A stretch of 60,440 nt of DNA from assembly GCA_045639255.1 (NCBI GenBank), contig JAZUCT010000007.1, positions 1 through 60,440 of the forward strand, in the 5' to 3' direction. This DNA is from Clostridia bacterium. GTDB taxonomy: Bacteria > Bacillota > Clostridia > Christensenellales > UBA1242. A program made the translations under genes and the position numbers. Shown here one piece after another: positions 2,145 to 38,305 of the stretch. Within the stretch, counting starts at the first letter, position 1. The number at the start of each line of letters is the position of its first letter. The notes below the pieces were generated by a model. It searched no databases. It saw nothing but the letters and a program-made list of their open reading frames with translations, and was not told the origin of the DNA.

Positions 2145-2145
2145 T

Positions 2146-12379: not shown

Positions 12380-13360
12380 ATGAATAATGAAATTTTTTAT
12401 TGGCCTTTAAAAGAAAAACTTGCATTAAAAAAGAACAAAGCAGAAATAACACTTGCAAGTTTTTTAATTAAAAAAGATATTAAACTTAAACATGTTAAAA
12501 GTTTGTTTAACTTGCCTTACAGCAAAGAAAATAACCCTTGTTTAACCTTTGATGTGCATACTCCAACAAACTTTTTATCACCTATGCCATGCATAATTTA
12601 TTTTCATGGCGGTGCATTGTTAAGTGGTGATAAAAGCATTTATACTTCTTTTTTAAAAAAACTTTGTAAGCTTGGGTTTGTTGTTTTTAATGTTAACTAT
12701 TCACTTATGCCCGAAGTGGAAATTGAAAACATTGTTTCAAATTGCGCTTGTGCTGTGAAACATATTGTTAAAAATTGCAAAAAATTTAACATTAACCCGC
12801 AAAAAATTGTTATGGGTGGCGATAGCGCTGGGGCTTACCTTGCATCGTTTTTAATAACTCAATTTCAAAACAAAAACTTTAAAACAAACCCACCAATTAA
12901 GTTTTGCGGTTGTTTTTTATATTATGGTTTGTTTGATTTAACAAAGTTTAACAAAAGCAAATTTCCAATTATAAAATCAATGCATTCGCGTTATGTTAAA
13001 CTTTTTGATAAGTATGAAAAACAAGAGTTTGATAAAATTAACCCAAACAAAAAATTTGTTTCGTGCGCAAAAAACTTTAAGAAAAGCAATTTGTATGCAT
13101 ATTATAAAAGTTATTCCACCACAACATACTTAACAAGCAAGTTTCCACCAACATTTGTGGCAAGTGGCAAAATTGATAAGTTGCACAATCAAACAAAGTT
13201 ATTTGTTGAAAAACTTAAAGAAAATAATGTGCCTGTTACGGCAGTTATTTTTGCACGCAACAGAGTTGATGCAAGGCACGCTTTTTTGAATGTTGAATTT
13301 TTGCCCAGTGCAAAAACTGCCTTTGCAACTCTTAAAGAGTTTCTGCAAAAAATAAAATAA
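12380..13360 (+). CDS. alpha/beta hydrolase (hormone-sensitive-lipase-like esterase family)
   Basis: HGGA oxyanion motif (IIYFHGGALLSGD) and GDSAGA nucleophile elbow, 326 aa. Confidence 0.75.
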   Translation: MNNEIFYWPLKEKLALKKNKAEITLASFLIKKDIKLKHVKSLFNLPYSKENNPCLTFDVHTPTNFLSPMPCIIYFHGGALLSGDKSIYTSFLKKLCKLGFVVFNVNYSLMPEVEIENIVSNCACAVKHIVKNCKKFNINPQKIVMGGDSAGAYLASFLITQFQNKNFKTNPPIKFCGCFLYYGLFDLTKFNKSKFPIIKSMHSRYVKLFDKYEKQEFDKINPNKKFVSCAKNFKKSNLYAYYKSYSTTTYLTSKFPPTFVASGKIDKLHNQTKLFVEKLKENNVPVTAVIFARNRVDARHAFLNVEFLPSAKTAFATLKEFLQKIK

Positions 13361-13387
13361 AAAAGCGAACAAATTGTTCGCTTTTTT
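13361..13387. terminator. bidirectional rho-independent terminator
   Basis: AAAAGCGAAC-AAATT-GTTCGCTTTT between the convergent esterase gene and giant gene 1. Confidence 0.65.
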
Positions 13388-13388
13388 G

Positions 13389-16300
13389 TTAGCCTGCATT
13401 AAGAACTGTTACTGAAACTTGTGCAGTTATTTTATCTGTTTTAACAACTTTACCGCTATCATCTTTAATTTCAATTGTGAAATTAAAAGTATGAATATCT
13501 TCTGTTGTTCCTTCTTTAATTGAAGTTGTGTATGAAACAGTGCTTTTTTCTGGATATTTGCTTTGATAATAATTTGTAACCACATCAACACAATCAAATT
13601 TTGATGGCATTGAAGTGTATTGAACCGTGTAACCCTTAGTTTCAAAGGTTATTGTTTCACAGTATGTGTTATCTGAAACCGTGCAATTATAAGTGTTATT
13701 TTGAGTTAAATCACCATTGCTATGAATTTCATAACTGTAACCAGATTTTAAAGTTCCAAACAATGCTTTTAATGCATTTTCTTTTTTAATTGAACCACCA
13801 TTATCAACAAGAACAAGTTCGTTTGATGTAACCATTGAGCTGTATCCAAAATCTGCAAATGGATAGTTGTCCACAAATCCAAGGTGCATATTGGTTTGTC
13901 CGCTATTATCTTTTTCAAAAACTTGAGTTGTTATTGGACTATTATTAGTGAAATTAACAGGATCATAATATGCATAAACGCTGTTATTCAAAATTGAATA
14001 TATTCCATTAAGCACCATAGTTCCTGTTTCGCAATAATATGTTGATGCATTCTTATTTGTCCATGTTGGATTAACATATGTTAATGCTAAGAATCCACCA
14101 TATCTTTCACTTATTGTTGTTAAATTTTTGGCAGAAGTTATGGTTTTAATTTTGTATATTTCATACATATTTTTGTTAATTGAAATATGGCTTCTTACTG
14201 AAAGTCCGTTAACTTCACAGGCTGTAAATCTTCCAGCTTCTTTACAAATTGTATAGTTGCCTGGAATCATGTAAGCCATACCTTCACTAAGATATTCAAC
14301 TGTTGAAGGAATAAATATAGCATTTTTTATTGAAGCAGATAATGAATATTTTCCAATTACTTTAACTCCACCACAAATATTAATATTTACATTTTCCATT
14401 CCTAAGCATGCCTTATCTGGCACAACAACACCTGTTATATAAAGATTTAGTGTTTTTGTTGACGGTGTCCAATAACTTGATAACTTAATATCTAAACTAA
14501 AATTAATACGATCATAGCTGTTTGAGTCTGGTGAGCAATTAACTGTTGCAGAATATTTTTTAGGTTCTTCTGACTTAAACACATCATAGAATGTGTAAGC
14601 AAAATTTTCATTTTCTGCACCATTTTCTTCATAAGTTGAAAGCGGCATTGTTAAATATTCAAGATTATTTGTGCCTGTAAATAGGCCTTTACCTATTTTA
14701 ATGGCTGTGTCCGCATCAATATTTGAAGTAAATCGTAATCTATCTGTATATTTATATTCAATAATTTCATCTTCTTTTGTTAAAAGTCTGGCACCGATAA
14801 CAACTTCGTTTAAGTTATTCATGTTACTGAATGCACCGTTGCCAACATATGTTAACACTGGGAAATAAACATTGTTAAGTGCAGTGTTTGTGAAAGCATT
14901 TGGCCCTAAATTTGATAAGGTTGTTAATGAGTTATATGCAACGCCATTAACTGTGTTTTTAATTAATGAAGTTAAATTTGCGCAACCTTGGAATGCTTTT
15001 TCTCTTATTATTGTAACTGCAGGTGCATATAATGTGGTTATGCCTATGCAACCATCAAATGCTGAAATTCCAATTGTTGTTGTTTTTGGCAATGATACGG
15101 CACCATTTGTGATTGCTGTATCATCTGTTACGCAAGCAACAGAAGTGTTGCCTTTAAATGCACCAGTGCCAATTGTTTGAACATTTGTTAAGCCAAGAAC
15201 CGCTTGAAGAGATTCTGCACCAGCAAATGTATATCTTTTAATTTCAGTGATTTTATTTAAGTTTGTAACCTTTTGAACAACTTTTGCACTGTTGAATGCG
15301 TATGCTTTAATTTGAGTGCAATTGTTATGAATAGCATAATTTAGTGTTTTGCTGTTATTTGCAAACATATAAAGAGTTGAATAATCTTGTGAATTATCTT
15401 CGTTATTGTTATATAATGCATCGAAATTATGTGTTAAATATTTTTCATTTTTTGAAACAAAACCAGATATATAAATATCCTTAAACACACCATAAACACC
15501 ATTATGTTCTGTATATTCTGTTACTCCACCGTTAACTGAGTTTATTTCGTTATCTCCAACATATTCAGGAATAAGAACTGGACGATCTTCATAACTGTTG
15601 TTCATTGCTGTTATTGTTGTTGATTTGGCGGTGTAAGTTCCTATTGCAAAGCTTCCAATAAAGTCAGAAGCATAATAAGTTTTAAGTGAAACTTCTTTTC
15701 CATATTCTTTTGAAACTAAGCCTTTTTCGTCTGAATTTCCGCCATAAATAAATTCAGTGTTTTGAAGTGTAGGCCAATGTTCTTTGTTTGCATATTCTAT
15801 TGTAGGGTCAAGGTCCACTGCAATAACTTGGTCGGTGTTATCCCTTACACTTACAACAAGTGGACTAAATGTATTTGTTACAAATTCTTCTGCAAGTTGT
15901 TCGTGGCTTACAGTTTTAAACTTGTTTTGTATATCTAAAAGGTCATCTGCAGATTTAAAATAACCACCAGATTGATAATTATATTTTATTTCAACATCAA
16001 CTTTAATATCGTTATCTAAGAATTTGCACTTACCGTTTCCAATAAAGTTGTTAACTTCGAAATATGCATTATTTTTACCTGTGATTTTTGGTTCACTTTT
16101 TGAAAGAATTGAAATATCGCCCAATTGAACAGATGAGTTATCTGATTGCCCTAAAAGAACACCAATGTTGTTATATTTTATTTCAGTATTATCGAAATCG
16201 TAGGTTTGTGCACCACCATTATCAAGTTTTCCATAGAAATCAATGTTACTTAATGTTAAGTTAACTGCGTTACCTACAAGTCCGCCAATATTGTTTTGTG

Positions 16301-19300
16301 CTTTTAAGGCGCCTGTGGTTTTATCGCTGCAAGAATCGTTTATTTCAACAATTGCTGTGTTGCTTACAAGCAAGTTAACAATTTTTGCAAATGCACCACC
16401 AGTTACCCTGCCAGTTGCACCAACAATTCCACCAAGGTTAACTTGTGCACCAAAAGTTTCAACTGCAATATGAACACCATTTGTTAAAACTGGAATTTCA
16501 ACTGTTGAAAGTGTTGTTTTTGAAGATTTTGATGGAGCAACATCAATCGAATTATCTGTTAAGATTGTTGAAGATTCAAGGTAACCAACAAGACCACCTG
16601 CATGAATATTTGTTAGTTTTGTGTTGTTTGCTTTAACATTAAGTTTATAATCTTCATCGGTTGAATAAATAAAACAATTGCTGAATGCTGTGCCATCTGT
16701 TGCATATGCAACAAGCAAGCCGATGTAAGCAGTGTTAAGTTCGTTGTTTTTTGTTGTTAATGATTGAATATTTTCTTCAACATTAATTTCTTTTTCAATG
16801 CGAACATTAACTTTATCGAACCACGCACCGTTTGACATTGCAAAAACTCCAAAGCAATGTTGTTCAACTTTATCGTCTTCGGCAATACTTTGCGAGCCAA
16901 CTTTTACTTGTGCAACATGAAGAGTTGATTTTGAATAATCATATTCACTGCCATATGAAGTATCGTTTGTGAACACAAAAGCAAAACCATTACCTTCAAC
17001 TGTGCCTGTGAATGGTTGTTCAATAATTCCTTGAACAACAATATCTTTTTCTAAGAATATATGTGCATCGCTTCTGTTATTAATTGCATTTTCAATTTCA
17101 TTCCAGCTTGAAACAGGAATTCTGAACAATTCAGTTCTTGAAGTTAATTCAATATATCTTAGTGAATTATCGGTATGACCTGTCCAAAGAACTTTGCTGA
17201 ATTTATCGTAAATTTTATTTTTTGAAGAATTATCTTCAACTCCAAGCGCCTCATCTGTTTTAACCATTTTTGCTGGGTGACAAAGTTTAATATCAACCCA
17301 ATCAAAGTTACCACTAACAACACCATCGATAACTGAAAAATCTTCGCCATTAACAAAATTACCATTAATATTTAAGCAATAATTAATCGTATCTCCATTC
17401 GAATCTGAATTATAGTTAAACATTTTTCCGTTATTATCAGTTTGGGTTGTTGAAGTTGAGAAAGAGTTTCCAAACATTATTGAAGTTGCATAGTTTTCAA
17501 CATAGGTTGTGCTTGTAGAACCCTTTGTTACTGCACCAATAAATGTGTTAAATGCATTACCCATTAAAATTGCTTGCTCATAATCGGCAAATAACCAGTT
17601 ATTAACTGCAACGCAATTTTGAACAATTCTTATGTTGTCATCAGAAGTGAATAGTGGTTCAAATTCTTCGTTTTCACTTTGATTTTCAAACAAAGCACCC
17701 TCTTTAATTAAAGAATCTTTATTTGCAACATGGCCAATAAAACCGCCAACAACTTCGGCAAGAACACTGCCAGATGCATAGGTGGTTGAAACTGAACCAT
17801 TAAGCAATCTGCCCACAGCACCGCCTGCAAATTTTGAAGTTTGATTTCGAACATCAATTTTTGAATAGCAATTTTTAATTTCGCCATGATTTAAGAAACC
17901 AACAATTCCGCCAATTGCTTGGTTAGTGCCTTTGAAATATGTTGTGTTTGCTGTGTTAGAAATTCTGCCAAGTTCAGTTTGTTCAACAAGTTTTTGTTGG
18001 CTATGTTCAATTTTTGACCTTTCAAGTGTTCCACGAAGTTCGCCCACAAGTCCGCCCGCAACTTTTGTTGCATAAAGCGAATTTTCACGGCTGGAAACTA
18101 AGTTATAGGCTGAAGAAACTTTTGTTTTTGCACCAACAAGACCAAATATTCCACCAACATTTTCGGCAAGAACACTTGCTGTGCCTGTTACTTGAACATC
18201 ATCAATATCGGTTTGAGAGTTAATGTTGCTTGAATCTGTTCCATAAACATCAACAATTCCACCAACTCCGCCTGCATAACTTAATTTATTTAAATCTGTG
18301 ATATTTGCAATAAAATATTTTGCTTCTGTGTCTGGATGATCTGGAATATTTTTTGTTGAATATGTTGCACTATATAGTGTGTAGCCATCTTCAACAATTT
18401 GATTGTTTCTGAATTCACTTGAAACACTGATTGAACTATCAAGGTTAACTGCCCTTGAACCGCCAAGCATTATTCCAAAAACACCACCAGTTATATTTTT
18501 GCCCACAGCAACAACATTTTTGCCTGAAACAGAAACATTAAGTAAGAATCCGTTTTCAACCTTACCAGCAACACCACCAACAATTGCAATGTTGTTGCCA
18601 TAAACTTCGGTGAATTCAAAGTTAAGGTTTTTAATTGTTGCACCATAGGTTGTGCGAAGAACTGAACCTTTAAATTGATTATCTGGGTTTCCGTTAAGTT
18701 CGCTGAAAAAACCAAGTGAATTTTGACCTTTAACCAAATTATTGGTGTTAACACGAATGTTTGAAATTGTCATTCCGTTTCCATCAAGTGCACCTTTGAA
18801 AATAACGCTTGCACTTGGTGAATTAACTAAGGTGTTATCGAATTCAATATCACAAACAAACCTTAAAATTGCATTAAGAACTTTGCGAGAAGATGTATCG
18901 TAAGTTCCATCGGCATGTTGTGTTTCATGTGTGGTTGTGTTTTTAATAACATTAACATAATCTTGTTGAGTTGCAATTATGTATGGGTTATTAATTGTTA
19001 ACATATCGCTTGTGCCGCTATAATTTGGAATTTCAGTTGTTCCACCGCGTTGTGGATAACCTGAAACAACACTTCCGCCAACCACGGTTTCGCCTGCAAT
19101 GTCGGTTTTTTCAATATAAACTTTTCGCATTGAAACAGTTATTTGATTTGCTGTTATAAGTTGTGGATATTCATGCATGCTTCCATCGTTAACATTTGTG
19201 TTAGGGCTTGCCATTTTCCAAATGTATTTATTTTCGTCAAGGTCAAAGTTTTTATCAGAATTAACAAACGAATATGTGTTAAAAGTTCCTTTTGATTGCA

Positions 19301-22300
19301 ATTCCAGCAAATCAATTTCACTTGCTGGTTCGTTTTCTGTGTTACCAAAATCTTCCGATTCTTCTGGGGAATTACCATTAATTCTTAAATAATAACTTGC
19401 ATAAACATTGTTGTTTGCAAGCACTTCGGTTGTTGATGTGCCTGTGAATGGTGTGTGTGCATTGTTGTTATATTCAATTGCACTTAGTGTGAAGCACGAT
19501 TCAATTGAACTTCCACTTGTGCTGTTATCATAAACAAATCCGCTTGCCCTTGCATTTGTTGAAACTTTTATGTTTGCATAGCAATTTGAAATGAAACCTT
19601 TGTTTAAATAAATGAATGCACCAATGTTTCCGTTTGAAGTTATTCCGCTTGCTGTTGCACGAACTTGTGTTGGTGTGTTTTCTTTAACTTTTTTATTTGC
19701 ATCATAATCGCTATCTTCAAATTGTTTGAATGTGCCTTCAACATAAGAATAAGCAATTTTTGCACTTGCACCATTTTCGCCAACAAATCCAGAGGTGGTG
19801 TTTTTAGATGAACTTTGTGCACCTTTATTGATTATTTCAATGCCTTTAACATAACTGCTTGCAATTATGCCTTGGTTGCTTGCAACAAGACCTGCAACAT
19901 TGCCATTTCCAACAAGTTTTGAACGGCATTCGGTTAATGCGGTTTTAACAAAATGTGGTTTATATGTGTTTTCAAGGCCTGTGCTATCAGCTGAACCTGT
20001 TATTTGTTTTGTTGGAATGTTAACAACTATGTTAAGTGGTTGTTCAACCTTGCTGTTTGTTATGTAACCATTGTTAACACCAACAAGTCCACCAATATTA
20101 TTAACTAAATCGCCAGCCAAACTTTCGTTTGTGGTGAATTCAAGCGAGAAAGTTGGTTTGCTTGCTTCAATAAATGTTTTGGTTGCTTCGTTATAAACTT
20201 TACCATAAGTTGCACCACTTACAGCATAATATTTTCGACCTAAAACATTTTCAACAAGTTTAACTTGAACATCTTCAAAACTTACTGTGCAGTTTGTTAT
20301 AACACCATTGTTGATTGCAGCAATTGTGCCATAGTTAACACTGCGATAAGTGTTTGATAAATCAAAGTTATTTTGGTTGTTAATAACAACTTTAACATTT
20401 TTTATGGTTGATTGTTTGCTTACTTCTTCAAATAAGCCAAGATTTAATGTGTCGGAAAGAGTTGAATTTTCGTTGTTTAAATCTATGCCATAATTTTTAA
20501 TGTTAATGTTAAATCCGTTACCATCGAAACTTGCAACTTTTGTTGAAATTGGCAAATAATTTTCAAGTTCTATATCATTCATAAGAATATAGTGTTGATT
20601 TTCTGCCATTGTTTCAAAATCTTCTTGACTATATATTGGAGCAGGAAGATTTGGGTCAGTATAAATTCCAATGTTAGTTGTGAATTGTGCTGACGCAGTG
20701 AAAGTTGTTTGTCCACTAGGTTCAGATTGTTTTACAAGGGTTAACTTACCATTGTTATAGTAATATTCAAATCGGCAAGCAATTGTTTGATTTGAAAGTG
20801 TGTTTTTTGCCCTTAAATAATGCTTACCATTATCGTCTGTTACAACTTCAATTGAGTTTGATAGATTTTGCGATAAATAATTAATAGGCTTATATTCTGT
20901 TGTTTTGCCTGATTCTTCAACAACAAACCAATATCTTGCAAGAATATCTCTTTTCACTGTAAGTTTATTATCGTTAAGTTCAACTTTTGATTTTGTTAAT
21001 TCGTTGATTATATCTTCAAAACCTGAACCAATCCAGTTTTCATCATAAATAAGCAGTTGTTGATCTTCTTTACCTACTTGAATATCCAAAATTTTATCGA
21101 TTGCAACGGTTGAATCTTTTGCAAGAACTAGGTTTGGAATAACAATATCTACAACAAGATAATTTAAGCATATTGTTTGTTCAACATTTGTTCCGTTTCC
21201 AAGCGGAATGTTAATTGATGCTTCAATTGTGCCAGTGTCACCCACTGAAAGCCCTTCTGTGCTTAATGTATATGGGTTGTTTCCGCCATGGCCTAAGTTA
21301 CCCCATTTAATTGTTGGTTCGCCATTAAAACCAATTGTTTTAATTATTAATTCGCCACCACAATTTTGTTTACCTGCTGGCAAATAAATTGTTGGTGCAT
21401 TGGTTTTGTCATTATCATTTTTGATTTCAATTGCAGATGCTGTTCTTACATCTGATCCGCCATTTTCGAATGCGTAAGTGTAAGTCATTTCAATTGAAAG
21501 TGAATGAACTGCTTTTAAAGTTATAACTTTTTGAATTGTTATGTTTTCAAGGGTTGTAACTGTTATTGTTAGTTCATACTTACTGTTTTCGCTAACACCC
21601 GATTTAATAAGTGTTTTTAAATAGATTTTGCCATCGAATAAATATTTAATGTTATCGTGGTTGAAAATTGTTCCAATATTATCGTTTTCAATGCCTGTTG
21701 TTTTTGAAATTGGAAGTGCTTTAATTCCATCGGTTATAAAGTCTGCCCTTGGGAATAAACTTTTATATGAATAGTTAAAGCCATCTTTTGTTTCATTTTC
21801 TTTAACATTGCCTGTGCGAATAACTTGTTCAAATGTTACATTATCTTCACTTGAACCAGTGTTAACAACAGTTATATCTTTAATGTTTGCATAGAATGGA
21901 TAAACATCAATTTCAAGCACGCTGGTGTTACCAGGTGTGATTGAGTTAGAGTTATCTGGATTAATATAAGTTAAGGTTGAAGAACTATCTTTTATGCCGT
22001 TATAGTTATTTGCATAAATGCTTTCAACTTTTTGTGCTTTAACAATAAAGTTAAATGTGAAGTTTGTGAAAATTTTGTTATTATTTTCAATTCTATAAAT
22101 TGTGCTATCAGTAAACACAATTTCAAAAGATGTATCTTCTGTGAACACTTGATAAGTGTTATTAAGTTTTGCTATGAATTTAACTGCAATTATGTTTTCT
22201 GCATATTCATATGGTGTTCCTGCAATAACTTGAAGTTGAGAGTTGTTATATGCATAAGTTAAATTTTCAAATGCACTTATATCTTCAACAGCAAATTCGT

Positions 22301-27395: not shown

Positions 27396-27455
27396 AACTT
27401 TTCCCCTAAAATTCGGCACTTTAAGTTAGTATGTGCCACATTTTCTTTATTATAT

Positions 27456-27484
27456 ATAATATAATAAAAAATTCTTTCAGTCAA
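27456..27484 (-). promoter_or_regulatory. promoter candidate for giant gene 1 (TTGACT-17-TATTAT)
   Basis: Read on the minus strand, about 60 nt upstream of ATG 27395 and downstream of the giant-2 terminator. Confidence 0.35.
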
Positions 27485-27496
27485 TTAAATGCAAAC

Positions 27497-27522
27497 AAAA
27501 ACAAGGCAATCGCCTTGTTTTT
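27497..27522 (-). terminator. rho-independent terminator after giant gene 2
   Basis: AAAAACAAGGC-AATC-GCCTTGTTTTT, 3 nt beyond the stop at 27525. Confidence 0.65.
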
Positions 27523-27524
27523 GA

Positions 27525-30500
27525 TTAATATGTGTTGTGATTATAAATTATTAATGTTGGGAATAAGCCAGATTTATTCCAGTTTAAACTAAATTTGCTG
27601 AACACATAATCCCTTAAATTAACTGAAACAACTTCTTTATCTATAACCATTTCCACTTTGCTGTTTTCAATATATTGTTGGAAAGTGTAAGTGTTATTTG
27701 TTTGACCAAAAGAATTTATTTTAACACCATATACAGAGTTTGGTGCTGTTATTTTTTGTTCTGAATAATTTGCGCTGTTCCAATCTGATGTGGTCCATAA
27801 TTCATTTCCCATAACAAAGTTTGATGAAATTGCTGAAACAGTTTCACTTTTCCATTTATTAAGTGCAACACAAGCTGAAATTCCAACCGTTGATGATTTA
27901 AGCCCAACAAGGCCACCAATTCTTGCAAAGATTTCAGTTTTTCCTTCGGTATAATTTAAGTATGCAAAAACCGAAGATGTTGCATAGCATTTAATTATGC
28001 TTCCATTTTTTGCTTCACCAACAAGGCCACCTGCTATATGGGCATTTCTGTTGCGAACATCAATGCGTGAATAACTGTTGCTTATTGTTCCGTCAATCAT
28101 ATAACCAACAAGCCCACCAGTTCTGTAATTTGTTTTTGCAAATAGGTTTGAAATATGTGTGTTTTCACTTGTTAATTGTGCTGTTGTTGAATCTGCAAGT
28201 TCTTTGTTTTCTTGCGAACAATCAAGGCGAACATAACCTATGCTTCCTGCACTGTGCGCAACAATTGCACCAGCGTTTCGCGTGCCATAAATTCCTTGAC
28301 TGAAATCGGTTGATTGTTGGTTCCAAACTGCAATAAATTCAGCATTGTTAATTGTTGAATTTTTGCTTAAATAACCAGCAATTCCGCCTGCATTTTCGCC
28401 TTTGATTATAACTTTATTTTCAGTTGTTAATTTGTTTAAAACACTTGATTCATTAATATCTGTTGTTAACGAATTATCAATATCATTTACAACACCAAAT
28501 AAACCACCTGCATATGAATAATTAACAAAATTTTCATCGCCATTAAATTTATAATTGGCATCATAGAACATGTTGTCTTTATACACATCTTCCATGCTGA
28601 ATTTGTTTTCGTTTTCAGATTTCCAAACTTCTGTTATGCTTCCGTGTGCAAATTCTGAACCAACAGAAACACCATTGTTAACACAATTAAATGCATTAAC
28701 ATTTTCAACATAACCAGCAATTCCACCAACCCAGTTTCTGCCTGTTACTGCTGTTTCGGTTTCACCATTTATTGAAATATCGAATAAGTGTGTGTTTTTC
28801 ATTTTTCCAGCAACTGTTCCAACAAAGTAGGATTTTGTTGCTGTTACTTCAACAACATTAAAGTTTGCATTTTTAATAACGGTTTGTTTTTCGGTTTCAA
28901 CTTTATATTCCATTGTTGAACCAAAGAAACCAAAACTGTGTGGTGCATTGGCACTTGCTTCGTTTGTTACAAGCGAAACATTTGAAATGTTAAAGCCATT
29001 TCCGTTAAATGTGCCTTTATAATTAAGTTTTTGCGATGTTATTTCTGATGCTTCAAAACTGATATCGCATACCAAAATTGCATGATAACTTGAATAACCT
29101 GTTGTTAATTTTATGAAATCGTTATAACTTTCGGCTGAATAAATAAGGTATGGTTTTGTTTTTGCTGAGCCATTCCATTGACCACCCACTTCGTTATAAC
29201 TGAATTCGTTAAGGCTTGATGTTGCTTTATTGTTTGAAGAAACAACTTCCCTTATTCTGCTTATGTTTTGTTCTGCAACAACCGGAACTGGACCAAAATC
29301 TTGATAAACATTCCAGTTAGCAGTTTCGTTGTTTATTGCAAAACTGTAAGGTGTTGAATTGTGGAAATTGTGATTATCGATCAGTGCAACACCTGATTCA
29401 ACATCAGTTACAACACTTAAATTGTTTTCTTGTTCATAAGCATAGCAATAACTTATTGAACCTTCGTTAAGCGATTGGTTAAGAGTGTTAATTGCGCTGA
29501 AAAGTGAATTTTTTGTGCTGTTAGGTGTGATTTTTGAAGATGAAACACAATTAATTATTTCACCTGAATTTTTGTTGTTATAAACAAATCCACCTGATTG
29601 AGATAAGATATTTTCAACCGAAATGTTTGCAGAACATTCTTTAATAAGGCCTGTGTTTTCATAAACAAAACCTGCGCCAGTGCCTTTTGAAATAAGAGCA
29701 TTGCCCGGGGTTGATATAACAAAATTTTCACCAAAACCTTCTGCATACGAATACATAATTCTTGCACCGTTGTTATTTGAAACAACAAAACCAGAAGTTT
29801 TTGTTTCTGCAATGAATGAACTTGTGTTTTCAAGTTTTATTGCTTTTGCATAACTTGCCGAAATTGCACCATTATTTATGCCAACAAATCCAGCAAGATT
29901 TCCGTTTGCTTGCAAGTGAATTTGTTCTTTTGAATATGTTTTATGTTTTGAAAGGTCGCCATTGTTAATTCCGTTAACCCTGGAATTTGAAATGTAACCA
30001 TTGTTTGTGCCAACAAACAAACTGAAATTTGATTTTGACACGCTTGAATTTGCTGTTAAGAATGTGTAGGTTAATTGATTTTCCTTTTCTGAATATGCTT
30101 TATATGAACCATTCAAGTTTTTATCGTAACCTTCATAATTTCCAACACTGCAATTGTTAATAATGCCGTTGTTAATTACTGCGAACAAACCAACATTAAC
30201 ATTGTTAAACATTGTTAAGTTTGTGCTTTCATCTTCATTAACATCTTGTAAATTGTTAACAAGTTTTGTGCTTTCAACAGTAAGAACAACATTTTTAATA
30301 ATTGAATTTTCACTTACTTTGTTAAACAAGCCAAGTGCAATGCTTTCGTTTGCAAAACCGCTTTCATAGAATGAACTTGCATCGAAGTTTTTAATTGTAA
30401 CAACTCTGCCATTTCCATCAACACTTTTTGCATTAAAGTTAATTGGAGTATAATTTTCCAAAACTATATTATTCATAAGAATATAATCAAGTGGATTTTC

Positions 30501-33500
30501 GGTTTCTTCGTTTAATTTTTTAATAAACTCTGCTGATGTATATATTGGATATGGATTATCGTCGCTTGAATAAACATTAACATTAATTGCAATATTACAT
30601 TCAATTTTATTGTTTTCACTTTCTGAAATTACAAATTCTCCATTTTCATTATATGAATATGCTGAATTTAAGAATATTTTTGACGAGTTTGTTGAATATC
30701 CTTGAACAGAGAAAGTTCCTTGTGTGTTAAAGAACATACGAATTATTCCATTTTCATTTGTATCTGGAATTTGGTTTTCTAAGGTTAAATATTTGCTGCT
30801 TATTAAACCACGAATTTTATTATAATCTTTCGAGTTTATTGTTTTACCATTTTTATTTTCTGCTGAATAATAAGTTGCAGAAATTAAATAATCACGCTGA
30901 CCATTATATGGAACATCGCCAAAACCATTAAATTCGTCTGTTTCACATGGTTCAATTGCAAAGTTAACCAATTTTTCTTTAACAAAAACAATTGATTTTT
31001 TTGTTTCTATTGTTTCAGTTAAACCATTTATGTTTGCAACAACTGTGAATTTAATTATATAAGTTTTGCCATATAATTCATTTGGATTTACATTAGGTTT
31101 TATTAAGTAAGGATATGTTGTTGTGTTGCCACTTACCATCGAAATGAAGTTGCCTTTTTCATCGGCTTTTCTTTCAACAGTGAAATCGTCTGTTGCACTT
31201 TCTTGTTTATCATATACTTTAACATCAATATTTTCGTTATTGAACCTTATTTGATTAAAGTTAATTTCAGCATCCATGCCAGCAACAAAAACAGAATTGC
31301 CTGAAAGTTCATTAACATATGCATTGTTTTTTGTTGGTGTTATGGTTGTTGTTGCTGAATTTTTAACAGTAAAATCGAAAGCACGAATAATATCTTCGCT
31401 GTTTGCCGAACCTTTTCCGCGAACAGTTATTGTGAATGTTGTGTTTTCAGCAATATCACTGCTGATGTAAGTTTTTAAATAGTAAATGCTTACATTTTCT
31501 TCAACATTAAGCGCAATGCTTCCATCTGGTTGATAAATTGGAAGTGGATAAACTTTTTCAATTTTATAAAAGCCTGTGTTGTTACTATCTGCAACATATT
31601 TAACTTGTTCAAAAGTTAGCCTATCACCACCCGCAGAAGATGAAGAAATATAAATATTTTCCATTTTTGCATAGGTTGGATATAAATCAAGTTGCAAAAT
31701 TCCCACATTGCCCGGAATTATAATATCGCTTGATGGCTCTGGCTCAACAGGTTTATCTGAATTTCCTTGCCTGTATGGTCCAACACCAAGTGGGAAATGC
31801 TGTGCTGAAATGTTAATAAGTTTTTGTGGAATAACTGTTAAGTTGTATGTTGCAAAAACTGTGATATTTTCTTCGTTTTCCCACAAATGTGTCCAGAACT
31901 TAAATTCAAACTGTTCGTTTTGTGAAATTGTTGCTTTTTTATTGTTATGAATTTTAATTAAGAAAGTGTAGGTTGTTTGATAATATGTGTTTCCATTAAT
32001 TTCAGTTGTGTTTATTTCACCTTGTTGAATATTAACAGATAAAATATCGCTTTTGCCTGTTAATTGGTGTTCCAATTTTTCGGCATTTGAATTTGAAACA
32101 ATATCTTTTGTTGTAAGAAGAGTTACAACAAATTCAGTTTCGTCAATTGGATAAATTGATTCGCTTGTTTTGTTAACTGAAATAAGGTTTGCCCTTTCGG
32201 TGCATTTAATTGTGAAAGTTATTGTGTTTGAAAGATAATGTTTAATATTTGCTGAAATTTGAATATATGGTTTTAAAGTTACTTTAACCGAACATTCTTT
32301 TATTGCTGTAAATGTTAAAGTGCTTGGGTTAAATGTTAAGCCATAAGTTGCAAGTTCGCTTTCTGAAAGTGAAAGGTCGCTGCCTGAAAGTGAAAGTTCA
32401 TAACTTATGTTTTTGTTAACATCAAAATTATCAAAAGTTGCGTTTGCATTAATTTTAACTGTTTGATATTTTTCAATTGTTAAAACATCTTTGTTTTCGT
32501 TAAATGCAGATGAAACATAGTTAATGTTATTAACTCCATTAACAACAAAGATATCAAAACTGCAATTAACATTTTTGTTTTTTAATGCTGTTAAGGTTAT
32601 TGTTGCTTTTCCTTCGCCATTAAGTTTGAATTTTGCAACACCGCCATCAATTACAATTGAAACAGCACTTGGGTTATCAGATTGTGCCACAAGTTGAAGA
32701 TGTTTAACGCTTGGATTTGGTGTTACAGTTAGCAATTCATTAAGTGCATATAGGTTTAGTGTTTCGCTTATTTTTTCAATTTCAATGATTGGTGTTTTTA
32801 AATACGCAATGAAAGTTGAGTTTAAATTTTCGTGATTAACAAAGTTTTCAATGGTGTTAAGTTTAAGTTCCAAACCTTCTGGGATTTTTTCAACTGGATT
32901 GTTTTTAAGTTCGTTTGCTTCCCAGTTATCTGAATTATCTTTGTGGAAATCAGAATTAACAAAATAATCTTGCAATGTTCCGCTGTTTTGTGCAACTGCA
33001 CTGATATTTGAGCCAAGAAGAGCATAAGTTTGTGAAATTGTGCCACTGTTTGTGCCAGCAAATGCACCGCAACGAGAAACCCCTGTTAACAAGTTATCAA
33101 TAACAAAACTGCGAACATAACTTAATGAAATTAAGCCATAATTATCGCCTGCAATTCCACCAACTGTGGTTCCTGAAATTGTTTCGTTTGACTTATATGC
33201 TTCAACATAACATTTTTCAATTGTTGTTCCCAAATCTTGAAGATTAATTCCAACAATTCCACCAACTGTGGTTCCGTTTATGTTTGCATTAACAAAACAA
33301 TTTGAAATGCTTTTACTGTTATAACCTGCAATTCCACCAACAACTCCACCTGTTAATGCAACGCCATCTTCGTTAACACAATGCACTGAAACGCTTTCAA
33401 TTTTGCCGTTATTTGTGCCTGAAACAGCACCAACGCTTGAATTTTCAGATGCTGAAATTATGCCAATTAAATCAAAGTTTTCAAAGTTAAATGAAGTTAG

Positions 33501-36500
33501 AATTTCTGTGCCTTCATTTTCAGTTGAACTATTATTGTTCCAGTGAACATAAGTTCCTGTTATTTCGCCTAAGTTTAAGCCAGCCAAACCACCAATATTT
33601 TGTGCTGTGCTTGATTGAATTTTAAAGTTAACAAGATTAATGCGTTCAAGTTTTGCACCATTTTTAAGGGTTGAAACAAACCCAAGGTTTTGAAGTGCAT
33701 ATTTTTCAGCATTAAGATTGCTTTCGATAATTGTTAAGTTTGAAATGGCAAAGTTTAAACCATCTCGGCCACCATATAAACCACCACTGAAACCAATTTC
33801 AATTCCGGTTTCATCTTTAAGCGAACCAATTGGTGCAAAGTTAATGTTGTTTAAGTTTATATGAGCATTAAGAACATAGAAATATGAAAGATTTTCTGCA
33901 CTTTGGTTAACTTCCAAAAGTTCTTCTGCGGTTTTTATTTCAAACGGATTTTCTTTTGTGCCATCAGCAACATAAATTTGAATGGTGGTTATTTCTGCTT
34001 TTGGTGCATTTTCAGGGTTTCCACCATTTTCAATTTCAACTTTTAAAACATCATTTTCTTTAATAACCGATGTAACACTATCTTCCCTTGCAACATAAAC
34101 ATAACATTCGCCGGCTGAAATTGGTGTTATTTTGCCCGAGAATTCATCTACGGTTGCAATGTTTGGATTTGAAGAAAAATATCTTAACTTTTTGTTAAAT
34201 GCGTTAAGTGGTGTTACTTGTGCATTAATTGTGAATGTGTTATTTTCTGAGTTTAACCCATTGCGTGCATCGAAATATTTTTGATATTTTAAAGATGCAA
34301 TTTTTTTGTTTCCGTTATATTCTTCAAGGTTTAAAATGTTAACATTTCCAATAATGGTTGCACGCACAAGTTTTATTTCTTTAAAGAATTTAACTTGGCG
34401 ACCATATTGGCTGAACGAAAGATTAACTGTGAAGTTTATGCTGTTAACACCTAAAAAGCCACTGCCTTCATCGTATGCATCAAGCGAAGCAAACGAAAGT
34501 GTTAACTTGTTATCGTTTTTGGTTGCTTTAATGTTTTGAAGCCATTTAATGTTTAAATAATCAACATCTTCTGCCCATTCAATTTCAACATCGTTAATTT
34601 GCCAATTAACTTCAACTTTATCTTCATTTTCAAGGCTAAGGCTGTTAAAAATGCTTTCATTAAGTGTTGCCGAAAGGCTGGTTTTTGATAGGTTTGGATA
34701 TAACGCGCCAACACTATCTGCCATATAAATTGTGTCACTGAAACCGCCATCAACAACAATGTTAACATTTGAAATGCCCTCAACAATTGTTACATTAATT
34801 ATGTAAGTTGTTTTAAATTCTGTGCAAACACTTTGTTCAAACTTCCAACCAATTATGGTTGCTGAAATTATTGCAGAGTTGCCTTTTGCATAACTTCCTG
34901 TTGTTATTGTGCCGTTTGAAGAAACTGAACAACAATTATTGTTTGCTTGAACAGAAAATTTTTCAATAACTGTTGCATTATTGTTTTTAACAAATGCAAC
35001 ATCAATTGATTTGTTTTGGAAAATTTTATATTTTGCAGTTTTATTTTCTGCATTATATTCAAGGTAAGCAACCCCTGAATTTTCGTTTATTGTTGGAAGT
35101 GAAAGTGAAATTTGTGTTTCATCAATTGCAACAACAACTTTTGCTTTAAACACAATATTAAAACTGTTTAAAGAAGAAAGTTCAATGTTAACTTCGCCAA
35201 CTTCCAAACCTGTTAGAACAAACACTTCTTTATTGTTTGAACCATCGGTTATGGTTGTTTTTTCAATATCAACAATTTCTGAACCATTTAAAACTTTTGC
35301 AACTAAATCTGTGTTTTCAAGGTTAATAACATATTCATTTGCGTCGGTTAAAACAAGGTTAAGTGTGCATGATTTGCCTTTTTCAATCATAAGCACATTT
35401 TCTGTTTTATCGGTTGCTGTTGAAATTTCGGTTAAATTTTCAATTTCTGCATTTGCTATGCCTTGATATGTTTTAACAATCATGTTGTTAGAAATATTTT
35501 CAAAATTTGTGCTTTCAAAAACAATTTCCATGCCATCAAGCCCATTAATTTCGCCATTTACAAATGCATAAATTGTTACACCGCTTGGAATGTTTTGAAG
35601 GTCTGTTATTTCAGTTTCGTCACTGAACAACCAAGTGATTTTTGAAAAATCTGGGTGCGAAGAACTTATTTTTATGTAACTGTTTTCTTCTTCAACTCCG
35701 TTTGGATAAACATTAAGTTTAACCGCTGTGCCTAAAACTCCATTTACATAAGATGTGAAAAGTGAAAGTTCTTGGCCAGTTTGATTTGAGTTGTTAATTA
35801 AAATATCGGTTGGAACAAAAACATTTTTAATTGGCAATTCAAAGTTAAAAGGTGAATATGTTTCATAGCCAGAAACAAAGCATGAAACACTTAAAACTGT
35901 TTCTTTTGCCACAAGCCCTGAAAGTTCGAAACTTTTTTCGTTAAGTTTTAAAACATTAACAATTGTTGAGTTTTGTGAAACAACATTAAATTCATAGTTT
36001 TCAGTTGTTGCGGTTTCAAAGGTTAAAACTGGTTTTGCGTTATCGTTTAGGCGAATTATAAGTTGTTCTTGAACATCTTGGTTATCAAGTTTTATTGAAA
36101 TTTCATCAAGTGATTTAATTGCTTCAATAACCCTTACTTCTAAGAATTGCTCTTCCCCTTGTTGATTTTTAGGGGTAAGGCTTGTTGCAATATTTTCAAC
36201 CTTAACACGAATTGCACCATTTTCTGTTGTTGGTTTTTTGTTGCCAACAGAAAGCAATCCTGATGGTGTTAACTCAATGTTTTCATATTCATCAACAAGG
36301 CTGAACTTAACATCTTTTTCGGTGATGTTATCTCCGCCTTCGCCATAGTTAACAGCCAAATCGCCGTTAAGTTGCAACTTGCCATTAACACTTACTGCTG
36401 GTTTATAACCTTCGTTTAAAAACATTTCAGTTGGCTTAATGCTTATGCTTACAGAAATATTTGCACTTTTTCCACCTTCTTGGCTGGCAACTGTTATAAC

Positions 36501-36815
36501 GGCAGATTTTTCGGTTGCACTTAAAATTGGCAAAATTGAAATCTCTGTTTCGCCTTTTTCGTTAACAACTGTTGAAAGGCTTATGCAACTGCTTTGAGTG
36601 GTTACAATAAGATTTTTTGAAACATTTTCACCCACCCCGCTTACACTTGCAGTAACAACTTTTGGCTGAATATCTTCTTGCTTATTTTCTAACTCAATTT
36701 TTATTTCAGTTTCGGAAAGATGGATTTTCATGTTCTTATATGGATTGGAACAACCCACAAACAATGAAACACAACCAATAAACAATGTTAAAAGTGCCAA
36801 AATTTTTGTTTTCAT
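27525..36815 (-). CDS. giant surface lipoprotein 2 (about 3,096 aa): Ig-like repeats and three GLUG-motif modules; paralog of giant 1
   Basis: Uninterrupted 9.3-kb ORF. ATG at 36815 has a GGTGA RBS (an alternative ATG lies at 36827). Lipobox LFVGC. Collinear with giant 1 up to its stop. Confidence 0.85.
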   Translation of the reverse strand: MKTKILALLTLFIGCVSLFVGCSNPYKNMKIHLSETEIKIELENKQEDIQPKVVTASVSGVGENVSKNLIVTTQSSCISLSTVVNEKGETEISILPILSATEKSAVITVASQEGGKSANISVSISIKPTEMFLNEGYKPAVSVNGKLQLNGDLAVNYGEGGDNITEKDVKFSLVDEYENIELTPSGLLSVGNKKPTTENGAIRVKVENIATSLTPKNQQGEEQFLEVRVIEAIKSLDEISIKLDNQDVQEQLIIRLNDNAKPVLTFETATTENYEFNVVSQNSTIVNVLKLNEKSFELSGLVAKETVLSVSCFVSGYETYSPFNFELPIKNVFVPTDILINNSNQTGQELSLFTSYVNGVLGTAVKLNVYPNGVEEENSYIKISSSHPDFSKITWLFSDETEITDLQNIPSGVTIYAFVNGEINGLDGMEIVFESTNFENISNNMIVKTYQGIANAEIENLTEISTATDKTENVLMIEKGKSCTLNLVLTDANEYVINLENTDLVAKVLNGSEIVDIEKTTITDGSNNKEVFVLTGLEVGEVNIELSSLNSFNIVFKAKVVVAIDETQISLSLPTINENSGVAYLEYNAENKTAKYKIFQNKSIDVAFVKNNNATVIEKFSVQANNNCCSVSSNGTITTGSYAKGNSAIISATIIGWKFEQSVCTEFKTTYIINVTIVEGISNVNIVVDGGFSDTIYMADSVGALYPNLSKTSLSATLNESIFNSLSLENEDKVEVNWQINDVEIEWAEDVDYLNIKWLQNIKATKNDNKLTLSFASLDAYDEGSGFLGVNSINFTVNLSFSQYGRQVKFFKEIKLVRATIIGNVNILNLEEYNGNKKIASLKYQKYFDARNGLNSENNTFTINAQVTPLNAFNKKLRYFSSNPNIATVDEFSGKITPISAGECYVYVAREDSVTSVIKENDVLKVEIENGGNPENAPKAEITTIQIYVADGTKENPFEIKTAEELLEVNQSAENLSYFYVLNAHINLNNINFAPIGSLKDETGIEIGFSGGLYGGRDGLNFAISNLTIIESNLNAEKYALQNLGFVSTLKNGAKLERINLVNFKIQSSTAQNIGGLAGLNLGEITGTYVHWNNNSSTENEGTEILTSFNFENFDLIGIISASENSSVGAVSGTNNGKIESVSVHCVNEDGVALTGGVVGGIAGYNSKSISNCFVNANINGTTVGGIVGINLQDLGTTIEKCYVEAYKSNETISGTTVGGIAGDNYGLISLSYVRSFVIDNLLTGVSRCGAFAGTNSGTISQTYALLGSNISAVAQNSGTLQDYFVNSDFHKDNSDNWEANELKNNPVEKIPEGLELKLNTIENFVNHENLNSTFIAYLKTPIIEIEKISETLNLYALNELLTVTPNPSVKHLQLVAQSDNPSAVSIVIDGGVAKFKLNGEGKATITLTALKNKNVNCSFDIFVVNGVNNINYVSSAFNENKDVLTIEKYQTVKINANATFDNFDVNKNISYELSLSGSDLSLSESELATYGLTFNPSTLTFTAIKECSVKVTLKPYIQISANIKHYLSNTITFTIKCTERANLISVNKTSESIYPIDETEFVVTLLTTKDIVSNSNAEKLEHQLTGKSDILSVNIQQGEINTTEINGNTYYQTTYTFLIKIHNNKKATISQNEQFEFKFWTHLWENEENITVFATYNLTVIPQKLINISAQHFPLGVGPYRQGNSDKPVEPEPSSDIIIPGNVGILQLDLYPTYAKMENIYISSSSAGGDRLTFEQVKYVADSNNTGFYKIEKVYPLPIYQPDGSIALNVEENVSIYYLKTYISSDIAENTTFTITVRGKGSANSEDIIRAFDFTVKNSATTTITPTKNNAYVNELSGNSVFVAGMDAEINFNQIRFNNENIDVKVYDKQESATDDFTVERKADEKGNFISMVSGNTTTYPYLIKPNVNPNELYGKTYIIKFTVVANINGLTETIETKKSIVFVKEKLVNFAIEPCETDEFNGFGDVPYNGQRDYLISATYYSAENKNGKTINSKDYNKIRGLISSKYLTLENQIPDTNENGIIRMFFNTQGTFSVQGYSTNSSKIFLNSAYSYNENGEFVISESENNKIECNIAINVNVYSSDDNPYPIYTSAEFIKKLNEETENPLDYILMNNIVLENYTPINFNAKSVDGNGRVVTIKNFDASSFYESGFANESIALGLFNKVSENSIIKNVVLTVESTKLVNNLQDVNEDESTNLTMFNNVNVGLFAVINNGIINNCSVGNYEGYDKNLNGSYKAYSEKENQLTYTFLTANSSVSKSNFSLFVGTNNGYISNSRVNGINNGDLSKHKTYSKEQIHLQANGNLAGFVGINNGAISASYAKAIKLENTSSFIAETKTSGFVVSNNNGARIMYSYAEGFGENFVISTPGNALISKGTGAGFVYENTGLIKECSANISVENILSQSGGFVYNNKNSGEIINCVSSSKITPNSTKNSLFSAINTLNQSLNEGSISYCYAYEQENNLSVVTDVESGVALIDNHNFHNSTPYSFAINNETANWNVYQDFGPVPVVAEQNISRIREVVSSNNKATSSLNEFSYNEVGGQWNGSAKTKPYLIYSAESYNDFIKLTTGYSSYHAILVCDISFEASEITSQKLNYKGTFNGNGFNISNVSLVTNEASANAPHSFGFFGSTMEYKVETEKQTVIKNANFNVVEVTATKSYFVGTVAGKMKNTHLFDISINGETETAVTGRNWVGGIAGYVENVNAFNCVNNGVSVGSEFAHGSITEVWKSENENKFSMEDVYKDNMFYDANYKFNGDENFVNYSYAGGLFGVVNDIDNSLTTDINESSVLNKLTTENKVIIKGENAGGIAGYLSKNSTINNAEFIAVWNQQSTDFSQGIYGTRNAGAIVAHSAGSIGYVRLDCSQENKELADSTTAQLTSENTHISNLFAKTNYRTGGLVGYMIDGTISNSYSRIDVRNRNAHIAGGLVGEAKNGSIIKCYATSSVFAYLNYTEGKTEIFARIGGLVGLKSSTVGISACVALNKWKSETVSAISSNFVMGNELWTTSDWNSANYSEQKITAPNSVYGVKINSFGQTNNTYTFQQYIENSKVEMVIDKEVVSVNLRDYVFSKFSLNWNKSGLFPTLIIYNHNTY

Positions 36816-36890
36816 AACTTTCACCATATCGCCTTTTTGTTAGTTTGTTTTAAATAGTGCAAAATATTTGTGCAATATTTATTTTCTTTA

Positions 36891-36919
36891 AGTATAATAT
36901 TATAAATAATATAAGTCAA
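36891..36919 (-). promoter_or_regulatory. promoter candidate for giant gene 2 (TTGACT-17-TATACT)
   Basis: Minus strand reads TTGACTTATATTATTTATAATATTATACT, about 75 nt upstream of the ATG. Confidence 0.45.
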
Positions 36920-38250: not shown

Positions 38251-38305
38251 ACATAAAAAAAGTGTAAACAAAACTATTTTAAACAACAAAAAAACAAACA
38301 AAAAA

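Follow-up and report, generated by a model that had tools for sequence, protein, structure and literature searches.

Two tandem genes of a Clostridia bacterium encode members of an unnamed family of giant predicted lipoproteins with Ig-like stalks and GLUG-type beta-helices

The Lig proteins of Leptospira carry an N-terminal lipobox and tandem Big_2 domains, and Ebh and Embp are giant adhesins of Gram-positive bacteria made of immunoglobulin-like (Ig-like) repeats. Right-handed beta-helices of the GLUG type are found in the M26 IgA1 metalloproteases of Streptococcus and Gemella (ZmpA family), large surface proteins attached through their N-terminus, in which the NTD2 beta-helix has no catalytic role and serves as a gate at the active site, the binding of IgA1 requiring that it open (PMC9637739). 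Here, we describe two adjacent genes located in a stretch of 60,440 nucleotides from a Clostridia bacterium (assembly GCA_045639255.1, contig JAZUCT010000007.1, positions 1 to 60,440 of the forward strand), hereafter the window. We call the long-form protein g1 and the short-form protein g2. As judged from sequence comparison, both belong to a large, unnamed and uncharacterised family of giant lipoproteins (3,100-7,700 amino acids, aa) present mainly in uncultured, Christensenellales-like Clostridia of the gut and rumen.

The g1 gene occupies 13389..27395 (-), stop codon included, and encodes a protein of 4,668 aa (509 kDa, pI 4.8). The g2 gene, at 27525..36827 (-), encodes 3,100 aa from ATG 36827 or 3,096 aa from ATG 36815, either of which is a likely start (340 kDa, pI 4.8). 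ORF calling placed the two genes head-to-tail on the minus strand, at 13389..27419(-) and 27525..36827(-); the likely start of g1 is ATG 27395, which has AGGGG in front of it, the upstream GTG 27419 being inside a leader hairpin. The initial annotation had reported two tandem minus-strand ORFs without an in-frame stop that cover about 39% of the window, and we obtained the same picture, with a value of 38.5%. Given a stop-codon probability of 0.080 per codon, derived from the base composition of the strand, ORFs of this length would arise by chance with a probability of ~1e-170 (g1) and ~1e-112 (g2), and in the g1 region 237 and 564 stops interrupt the two remaining frames of this strand. The GC content of the region of the giant genes matches that of its flanks (~32% for the window). 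Neither tandem repeats nor long near-identical direct repeats were detected in 13000-37200 by Tandem Repeats Finder and a repeat finder; the longest repeat families there are of 30-45 nt, mostly ~60-90% identical, and code for the GGxxG coil motif that recurs in the proteins. No internal repeats were revealed when each protein was compared with itself by BLASTP. Since the region has no long repeats, a misassembly by repeat collapse is unlikely. We conclude that g1 and g2 are real, intact genes.

Both proteins start with a signal peptide and a lipobox that satisfy a lipoprotein rule of the PROSITE PS51257 type (charged n-region, hydrophobic h-region, [LIVMFWSTAG]2-[LIVMFYSTAGCQ]-[AGS]-C, with the Cys at 15-35). 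In g1 (27330..27395 (-), MKKIAYILTIVLSVCSLFMFG-C22) the rule is satisfied by KK at residues 2-3 and by LSVCSLFMFGC ending in Cys22, and AF2 predicts a helix at residues 2-19. In g2 (36750..36815 (-), MKTKILALLTLFIGCVSLFVG-C) it is satisfied by a K in the n-region and by FIGCVSLFVGC ending in Cys26, which is Cys22 when counted from the MKTK start; there is an alternative Cys at 19. The lipobox Cys (Cys22 of g1) is the only invariant column in an alignment (A4) of residues 1-1,000 of g1, g2 and 40 relatives (n=42), and Lys3 is nearly so. Of the 66 giant ORFs of genome loci that have a complete N-terminus, 59 carry a lipobox, as do 134 of the 145 full-length database representatives, and it is followed by a conserved C-x3-Y-x2-L motif, represented in the window by CTNKYKNLKLEL and CSNPYKNMKIHL. 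From the signal peptide and its conservation across the family, g1 and g2 are predicted to be lipidated and anchored to the membrane by the lipid. No LPx[TA][GA] motif and no C-terminal hydrophobic segment is present in either protein, and Pfam gave no match to SLH or choline-binding (CW_binding) domains; besides the signal peptides, the only hydrophobic segment is a short stretch at g1 2073-2075. Anchoring through sortase, SLH domains or choline was rejected because no such motif or domain was found. The initial annotation had noted lipobox signal peptides on both proteins and no LPXTG, SLH, choline-binding or transmembrane (TM) anchor; the first of these observations is reinforced by the Cys that is invariant across 42 N-termini, and the second holds, the stretch at g1 2073-2075 and the signal peptides aside. 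There is no lgt or lsp gene within the 60-kb window.

The N-terminal stalk of g1 (residues 23-960, 24516..27329 (-)) is predicted to be a chain of about nine beta-sandwich domains with an Ig-like fold. The AF2 model of g1 1-1000, built from a 23-row alignment, has a mean pLDDT of 85.4 and consists of the signal-peptide helix followed by about nine all-beta domains of ~100 residues. When this model was used in Foldseek, it matched NUP210 (E 3.5e-25), DSCAM, contactins, cadherins and the S-layer proteins SbsB, Sap and SbsC, with E values from 1e-25 to 1e-11, as well as titin and the neck of GhpA. At the sequence level, Big_2 (PF02368) remained below its gathering threshold of 22.8 bits, with 17.3 bits at 863-913 of g2 and no match in g1; 6 of the 42 family N-termini have Big_2 matches at E<=0.01, and a search of g2 against PDB sequences returned the Ig domain of the S-layer protein Sap with an E value of 0.04. 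The N-terminus had been proposed to be Ig-like and of the Big_2 type: the tandem Ig fold is borne out by the AF2 model, but the Big_2 assignment is sub-threshold by sequence. The stalk of g2 (residues 27-954, 33966..36749 (-)) appears Ig-like by homology to g1, from the BLAST block at 8-501 and the family alignments. After the first beta-helix, each protein has a middle stalk without Pfam matches (g1 residues 1448-2253, 20637..23054 (-); g2 residues 1401-2094, 30546..32627 (-)), and the two have a BLAST block in common. The first ~100 residues of the g1 middle stalk align with the Ig domain D5 with an hhalign probability of 81%, and the remainder has no classification.

Three beta-helix modules, M1 to M3, were recognized in both proteins. 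M1 is of the GLUG type (g1 residues 961-1447, 23055..24515 (-); g2 residues 955-1400, 32628..33965 (-)). Scanned alone against Glug (PF07581, cut-off 20.5 bits), it scores 41.7 bits in 4 stretches in g1 and 28.6 bits in g2; Glug is under-scored in full-length scans, which gave 17.5 and 17.7 bits for the two proteins. The M1 of g1 also has weak matches to the M2 and M3 profiles, that of g2 a weak match to Peptidase_M26_N, and a profile hidden Markov model placed the first beta-helix of g1 at 977-1447. M2 and M3 are the signature of the family. They were detected by hmmsearch with 450 and 536 bits in g1 (residues 2254-2726, 19218..20636 (-), and 2794-3242, 17670..19016 (-)) and with 421 and 530 bits in g2 (residues 2095-2505, 29313..30545 (-), and 2548-3022, 27762..29186 (-)), where M3 is the distal end of the short form. 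In the AF2 model of M2-M3 of g1, the beta-helix cores have a pLDDT of 70-90 and the overall mean is 54. The top Foldseek match of this model is the IgA1 protease of S. pneumoniae (6xjb; prob 1.0, E 8e-4), followed by generic right-handed beta-helices. Additionally, a profile made from 30 family sequences pulls hundreds of proteins with PF07581 (GLUG) and PF05342 (Peptidase_M26_N). The GLUG-type modules named in the initial annotation are therefore supported by M1, above threshold in both proteins, and by the IgA1 protease as the top structural match of M2-M3; the per-module structural comparison that it had suggested, carried out with AF2 and Foldseek for residues 1-1000 and M2-M3 of g1, returned Ig arrays and beta-helices.

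Beyond M3, g1 has an extension that starts with a beta-helix-like module, M4 (~residues 3470-3900, 15696..16988 (-)). This lineage-specific module gives weak M2/M3 matches at 3506-3834 and a sub-threshold Glug score of 19.1 bits, and GG[ILV]xG motifs occur in g1 at 3600-3704, inside M4, as well as at 1168-1331, inside M1. It is followed by a leucine-rich repeat (LRR) region of the BspA type (residues 4009-4300, 14496..15371 (-)), which had escaped the initial annotation: LRR_5 (PF13306, cut-off 27.7 bits) matches g1 from 4009-4142 onward with 86.5 bits in 3 stretches (E 1.7e-24), and the same region matches PDB 4fs7 (E 3.4e-6). Pfam did not detect LRR_5 in g2. The C-terminal tail of g1 (residues 4301-4668, 13392..14495 (-)) is unique and the fastest-diverging part of the protein, with a weak continuation of the LRR (LRR_5, 16 bits); no relatives of these 368 residues were detected. 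A protein homology search with g1 3469-4668 gave no matches, and a scan of JGI metagenomes with the tip of g1 gave a single distant LRR match. Neither protein matched NCBIfam, and the only results of the PDB sequence search were the LRR match and marginal Ig matches.

The initial annotation had considered g1 and g2 to be paralogs, and BLASTP aligned them in three collinear blocks of 25-30% identity: g1 3-500 with g2 8-501 (30%), g1 1168-1944 with g2 1079-1802 (25%), and g1 2148-3213 with g2 1977-2955 (28%, E 2e-76). In this way, the collinearity of g2 with g1 extends to about residue 3,250 of the latter. A collinear N-terminal region of about 960 aa had also been proposed. Pairwise, this was recovered for residues 1-500, and the peptide pair quoted for it (VTVATQEGGKTANVTV / ITVASQEGGKSANISV) is present, as is VADGTK at ~residue 950 of both proteins; the rest of the region is collinear only at the level of the family alignment. 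Gly952 of the VADGTK motif is the only invariant column in an alignment of 40 sequences (A5). The bit scores of g1 are higher to other members of the family (e.g. P0062) than to g2, which suggests that the duplication is old. Judging from these alignments, g1 and g2 are anciently diverged paralogs.

To describe the family, a profile search was run that covered 1.84 billion representatives (50%-identity clusters). It returned 31,106 proteins at E<=1e-3 and 1,710 at E<=1e-30, and the matches beyond E<=1e-30 are mostly generic GLUG beta-helix proteins. The best 150 matches listed all have E<1e-149; most of them are of 3,100-3,900 aa, with a C-terminal double beta-helix as in g2, or of 4,400-7,666 aa, with a further extension as in g1, and ~20 are shorter. 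In those of the 150 with a complete N-terminus, the match nearly always starts ~2,000-2,900 residues into the protein. An earlier word-indexed search with g1 2100-3250 had yielded 10 matches, an apparent rarity that reflects a limit of the word index. A scan of the GTDB species genomes detected 147 relatives (loci), mostly in Christensenellales-like MAGs of gut or rumen, and the statements that follow on these loci rest on the 80 of them that were kept. The 80 loci are 23-30% identical, come from MAGs (metagenome-assembled genomes) or assemblies of uncultured isolates, and are titled Clostridia, Christensenellales, Christensenella sp., Firmicutes, Lachnospiraceae, Catabacter, Eubacteriales or Ca. 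Onthoplasma; where the title gives a source, it is the human, ruminant or chicken gut. The longest ORF with a match is of 7,056 aa. Both g1 and g2 have the features that define the family, that is, a lipobox, CxxxYxxL, an Ig stalk, M1, a middle stalk, and M2-M3 at ~2,000-3,300. In the ten clusters checked for names, "hypothetical protein" was the only name present, and full-text literature searches found no description of this giant-lipoprotein family. Tandem copies of family genes are present in at least 7 relatives (L022, L030, L044, L045, L069, L078, and L039/L075, which are on one contig); this, together with the existence of short and long forms, is the outcome of the copy-number comparison that the initial annotation had advised. 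In one locus (L001 3-10744, on the contig of P0002), three consecutive ORFs of the same strand encode 1,380+, 1,088 and 1,098 aa, and only the last one matches M2-M3; a giant gene may have been split or frameshifted here, or this version may consist of separate subunits.

Two related assemblies keep the arrangement of the window, one of them for both giants and the other for the long gene. In the Logan contig L084, a giant of 3,157 aa and then one of 4,782 aa with LRR_5 are found in the same tandem order, and the gene order is that of the window: rubrerythrin, two unknown genes, a SpoIIT-like gene, an M23 peptidase, ACP, SpoIIID, PP-loop and the two giants. The ENA contig L083 carries a g1 ortholog of 4,427 aa followed by the same esterase, Band_7, NfeD and DHH genes; this contig begins 81 bases upstream of the long gene and consequently includes only this giant. 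Over residues 5-3008, g2 is 53% identical to P0017, and g1 is 52% identical to P0012 over g1 1-4389 and 52% identical to the second L084 giant over the 3,254 aa held in the locus; the identity between P0012 and the long L084 giant is 55%. The flanking proteins of the ortholog contigs are 66-93% identical, versus 52-55% for the giants, indicating that the giants diverge several times faster than their neighbours while remaining intact. This divergence is uneven along the protein: in bins of 100 residues, g1 and P0012 are 45-80% identical in the first 3,200 residues and 14-47% beyond 3,500.

Upstream of the giant gene, the fetched loci have a PP-loop ATPase in 21 cases and an M23 peptidase in 29. 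In at least 12 loci, rpoB-rpoC are located directly downstream of a short-form giant, and this neighbourhood looks like a second conserved chromosomal site of the family. The short-form giants adjoining rpoB/rpoC (3,200-3,850 aa) are those of L019, L034, L050, L053-L056, L065, L072, L073, L080 and L081. In most of these loci another ORF of >750 aa, with no BLAST similarity to g1 or g2, precedes the giant. The ORFs of ~1,240 and ~1,180 aa found after short-form giants were considered as split-off parts of the family and rejected, as they are RpoB and RpoC. One of the rpoB-rpoC-adjacent loci, L019 (CALURS010000002.1), comes from a MAG labelled Candidatus Gastranaerophilales (Cyanobacteriota-related), and the others of the 80 loci are labelled Clostridia-type or Firmicutes; its label may be due to mis-binning or to horizontal transfer.

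Signals for separate transcription of the two genes were identified as consensus matches only. Sigma-70-type near-consensus sites precede g1 (TTGACT-17-TATTAT, 27456..27484 (-)) and g2 (TTGACT-17-TATACT, 36891..36919 (-)), and putative intrinsic terminators, each a hairpin with a T-run, follow g2 (27496..27523 (-)) and g1 (13359..13387 (-)). At that level, they agree with the promoter candidate for each gene and the terminator for g2 that had been noted before. A similar hairpin and T-run, plus a TTGACT hexamer, are present between the two giant genes of L084, the hexamer as read by eye. The 5' leader of g1 contains, at 27415-27437 (-), a 6-bp stem (UGGCAC/GUGCCG) with a 13-nt loop, and the GTG 27419 chosen by the ORF caller as the start of g1 is inside this stem. 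The stem is kept in the L084 ortholog (~19670-19694) with a different loop sequence, and the fold z-scores are -2.0 and -2.2; this hairpin may be an mRNA-stabilising or regulatory element. Just upstream of the g2 promoter, a 14-bp hairpin is followed by a T-run (36931-36965 (-)), although no upstream gene of the same strand would need a terminator, the next gene, that of a PP-loop ATPase (37110-37883), being divergent. A polymorphic toxin was also considered and rejected, since g1 is followed only by a terminator and a convergent esterase gene, with nothing that resembles an immunity gene.

Regarding function, we lean, with modest confidence, toward the idea that g1 and g2 are long, lipid-anchored, adhesin-like fibrils, in other words, non-enzymatic surface-interaction proteins. 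We favour it because of the lipid anchor, the acidic pI, the long stalk of Ig domains, the beta-helices and LRR at the distal end, an evolution that is fast, and fastest at the tip, and the recurrence of tandem paralogs. According to this proposal, each gene would be transcribed from its own housekeeping-type promoter, as the consensus matches and the TTGACT between the L084 giants suggest. The product would be exported by Sec, lipidated and cleaved at the lipobox Cys by Lgt and Lsp, leaving its N-terminus in the outer leaflet of the cytoplasmic membrane. The approximately nine Ig-like domains, the GLUG beta-helix and the middle stalk of ~700-800 aa would then form an extended fibril of, very roughly, 80-120 nm (assuming that an Ig domain adds ~4 nm and a helix coil ~0.5 nm), a length sufficient to span the wall. 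At its distal end it would display the signature pair of GLUG/M26_N-type right-handed beta-helices, to which the long form adds the beta-helix-like module, the LRR and the tail, and these distal modules may bind host mucus, dietary glycans or other cells. From the divergence rates, the presence of two paralogs and a fast-diverging tip could provide differing or changing specificities.

The sequence of the proteins is compatible with a non-enzymatic role. No catalytic Pfam or NCBIfam family was detected, be it in g1 and g2 or in the extensions from 12 long relatives, and the sole HExxH (HETQH at g1 2823) falls in an insertion that neither g2 nor the homologs share. In the M2-M3 alignment, 35 columns are invariant and consist of G, N, F, I, L, C and W, to which the near-invariant ones add only one Asp (in the DGNG cap) and one Arg; from the alignment, the invariant residues look like structural ladder residues of the beta-helix.

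Several observations weigh against the fibril. The case for it is made from comparative evidence and predicted structures; the M2-M3 model is moderate (mean pLDDT 54), ~1,900 residues of g1 have no structural assignment, and, the generic LRR aside, neither protein has a domain with a demonstrated ligand. The distal M2-M3 pair is the most conserved part of the proteins, a pattern that would not be usual in a variable adhesin and that could mean that the pair has a conserved role, enzymatic or structural. Likewise, the position of the genes beside M23 peptidase/SpoIIID/PP-loop or rpoB-rpoC could reflect a core envelope function and not an accessory adhesin. Finally, a lipoprotein of 340-510 kDa would have to pass through a Gram-positive wall.

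Among the alternatives, the one that survives best, although we consider it unlikely, is that these proteins are a structural coat or envelope spacer, S-layer-like or fibrillar, a core and near-universal component of the envelope in which adhesion would be secondary at most. The conserved position of the genes next to housekeeping and sporulation genes (M23 in 29 loci, PP-loop in 21, rpoB-rpoC in at least 12) fits this idea, and so do the large size of the family, its wide distribution within one clade and its conserved core architecture. The N-terminal Ig arrays do match the S-layer proteins SbsB, Sap and SbsC in Foldseek; however, these are generic Ig-array matches, ranked under NUP210 and DSCAM, and no SLH or other wall-binding domain is present. 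Moreover, the rapid divergence and the variable C-terminal extension suit an interaction surface better than a lattice.

The conservation of M2-M3, the most conserved part of the family, would also be expected of a surface enzyme that degrades polysaccharides, in which at least one of the beta-helix modules would have lyase or hydrolase activity (pectate-lyase, PL6, GH28 or GH55 type) and would attack glycans of the diet or the host from the end of a long stalk. PL6 alginate lyase, fucoidan lyase, GH55, GH28, GH87 and phage depolymerases are indeed among the Foldseek matches of M2-M3, and the extension of one relative has a marginal CBM_5_12 match. Nevertheless, those Foldseek matches have E values of 1e-3 to >1 and TM-scores of 0.1-0.3, which correspond to generic beta-helix similarity, and the best structural match is the non-catalytic NTD2 of the IgA1 protease. 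No CAZy-type Pfam match was obtained in g1, g2 or the extensions of 14 relatives, and the invariant and near-invariant columns of M2-M3 do not include a cluster of Asp, Glu, Lys, Arg or His fit for an active site. For these reasons, we regard an enzymatic function as quite improbable.

A relative of the M26 IgA1 metalloproteases (ZmpA, ZmpB, ZmpC) that cleaves host immunoglobulin or mucin would share the GLUG/Peptidase_M26_N beta-helix and the gut habitat, but this possibility is close to refuted: Pfam detected no Peptidase_M26_C or other metalloprotease domain, the HETQH at g1 2823 is in a non-conserved insertion, g2 has no HExxH, and neither a G5 domain nor an LPxTG motif is present. Weaker still, and in our opinion almost certainly wrong, is the view that g1 and g2 are artefactual, either because repeats were misassembled or because they are pseudogenes in decay with the mere look of ORFs, since, even if the window is probably metagenome-derived and its own proteins are absent from the contig collection searched, there are no long repeats, the chance probability is ~1e-170, the GC is that of the flanks, and full-length collinear orthologs in independent assemblies keep the start, the lipobox, the intergenic terminator and the TTGACT hexamer. 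A stronger form of the adhesin-like fibril proposal can also be stated, namely that these fibrils of 0.3-0.8 MDa are the dominant surface structure of the clade and its main interface with hosts and partners, that the double beta-helix reads a specific glycan of host or microbial origin, and that a lipid anchor is here a new mode of displaying giant proteins across a Gram-positive wall; taken as a whole, we consider it rather unlikely.

On the other side of the PP-loop ATPase gene (37110-37883), which is divergent from g2, the window contains two ORFs of 84 aa, at 37996-38250 (+) and 38323-38577 (-), that match by position the SpoIIID and the PP-binding (ACP) gene of L084, respectively, followed by the genes of an M23 peptidase (38651-39238 (-)) and a SpoIIT/DUF1779-like protein (39312-39803 (-)). 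This cluster of small genes (37996-39803), also present in L084, suggests that the organism belongs to an endospore-forming lineage. Farther along, a tRNA-Arg(cct) (49926-50004) is followed by tandem tyrosine-integrase genes (51459-52895 and 52828-54249 (-)), a primase-helicase fusion (55017-57023; Zn_ribbon_DnaG + Toprim + AAA_25/DnaB_C) and three ORFs without a Pfam match (57400-60079); the region 49926-60079 is probably a mobile element integrated at the tRNA.

The Clostridia that carry this family are abundant in gut metagenomes and almost entirely uncultured. The family represents a well-defined entry point to the surface biology of this clade. It occupies tens of kilobases per genome, and both its architecture and its chromosomal position are conserved. 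If expressed, these proteins are probably the longest and most exposed molecules on the cells, and they would be candidates for recognition of the host, the diet or other microbes, for phage receptors and for strain-level markers.

Among the known systems, the M26 proteases share with g1 and g2 the right-handed GLUG beta-helices and the attachment of a large surface protein by its N-terminus. In contrast, g1 and g2 have no M26 catalytic domain, HEXXH+E or G5, carry a lipobox where those proteases have an N-terminal LPxTG or TM segment, present three or four beta-helix modules between Ig-like stalks, and are 2-4x larger. LigA and LigB of Leptospira are likewise lipoproteins with tandem Big_2 domains (PMC7821625). 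Their chain of bacterial Ig-like domains displays a distal binding region; they differ in being diderm outer-membrane lipoproteins of ~1,200-1,900 aa without beta-helix or LRR modules, and the PDB sequence searches with g1 and g2 returned no Lig domain. Giant1-5 of Apilactobacillus kunkeei and the serine-rich-repeat (SRR) adhesins are also comparable, in that extracellular proteins of 3,000-8,000 aa are encoded in tandem in a host-associated Firmicute (PMC12863079) and combine an elongated stalk with a beta-solenoid binding domain; the SRRP beta-solenoids of L. reuteri are among the Foldseek matches of our M2-M3 model. However, the beta-solenoid of the A. kunkeei giants is N-terminal, whereas the N-terminus of g1 and g2 is the lipid anchor and their beta-helices are internal and distal. 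Furthermore, the serine content of g1 and g2 is 8.5-9.6%, they have no serine-rich repeat tracts, and no sequence homology to those proteins was detected; neither secA2 nor secY2 is present within the window.

The BspA-like proteins (LRR_5; 4fs7) resemble g1 in its clear LRR_5 region at 4009-4300, which is kept in the L084 ortholog, but this LRR is a single module that accounts for 6% of g1 and is absent from g2 and from the core of the family. With the giant Ig-repeat adhesins, such as that of Mobiluncus mulieris (7,651 aa; PMC10619420), g1 and g2 share a very large size and chains of Ig-like beads that project a binding region; those adhesins have near-identical tandem repeats and an LPxTG or C-terminal TM anchor, whereas the domains of g1 and g2 are highly diverged and the anchor is a lipid. 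In essence, both the description and the reading given in the initial annotation hold. The g1/g2 family is built from the module types already known in giant modular surface proteins, and it is an unstudied family and not a new kind of system. The pair adds no new principle to these systems; with both the short and the long form present, clean and complete, it can serve to define the family.

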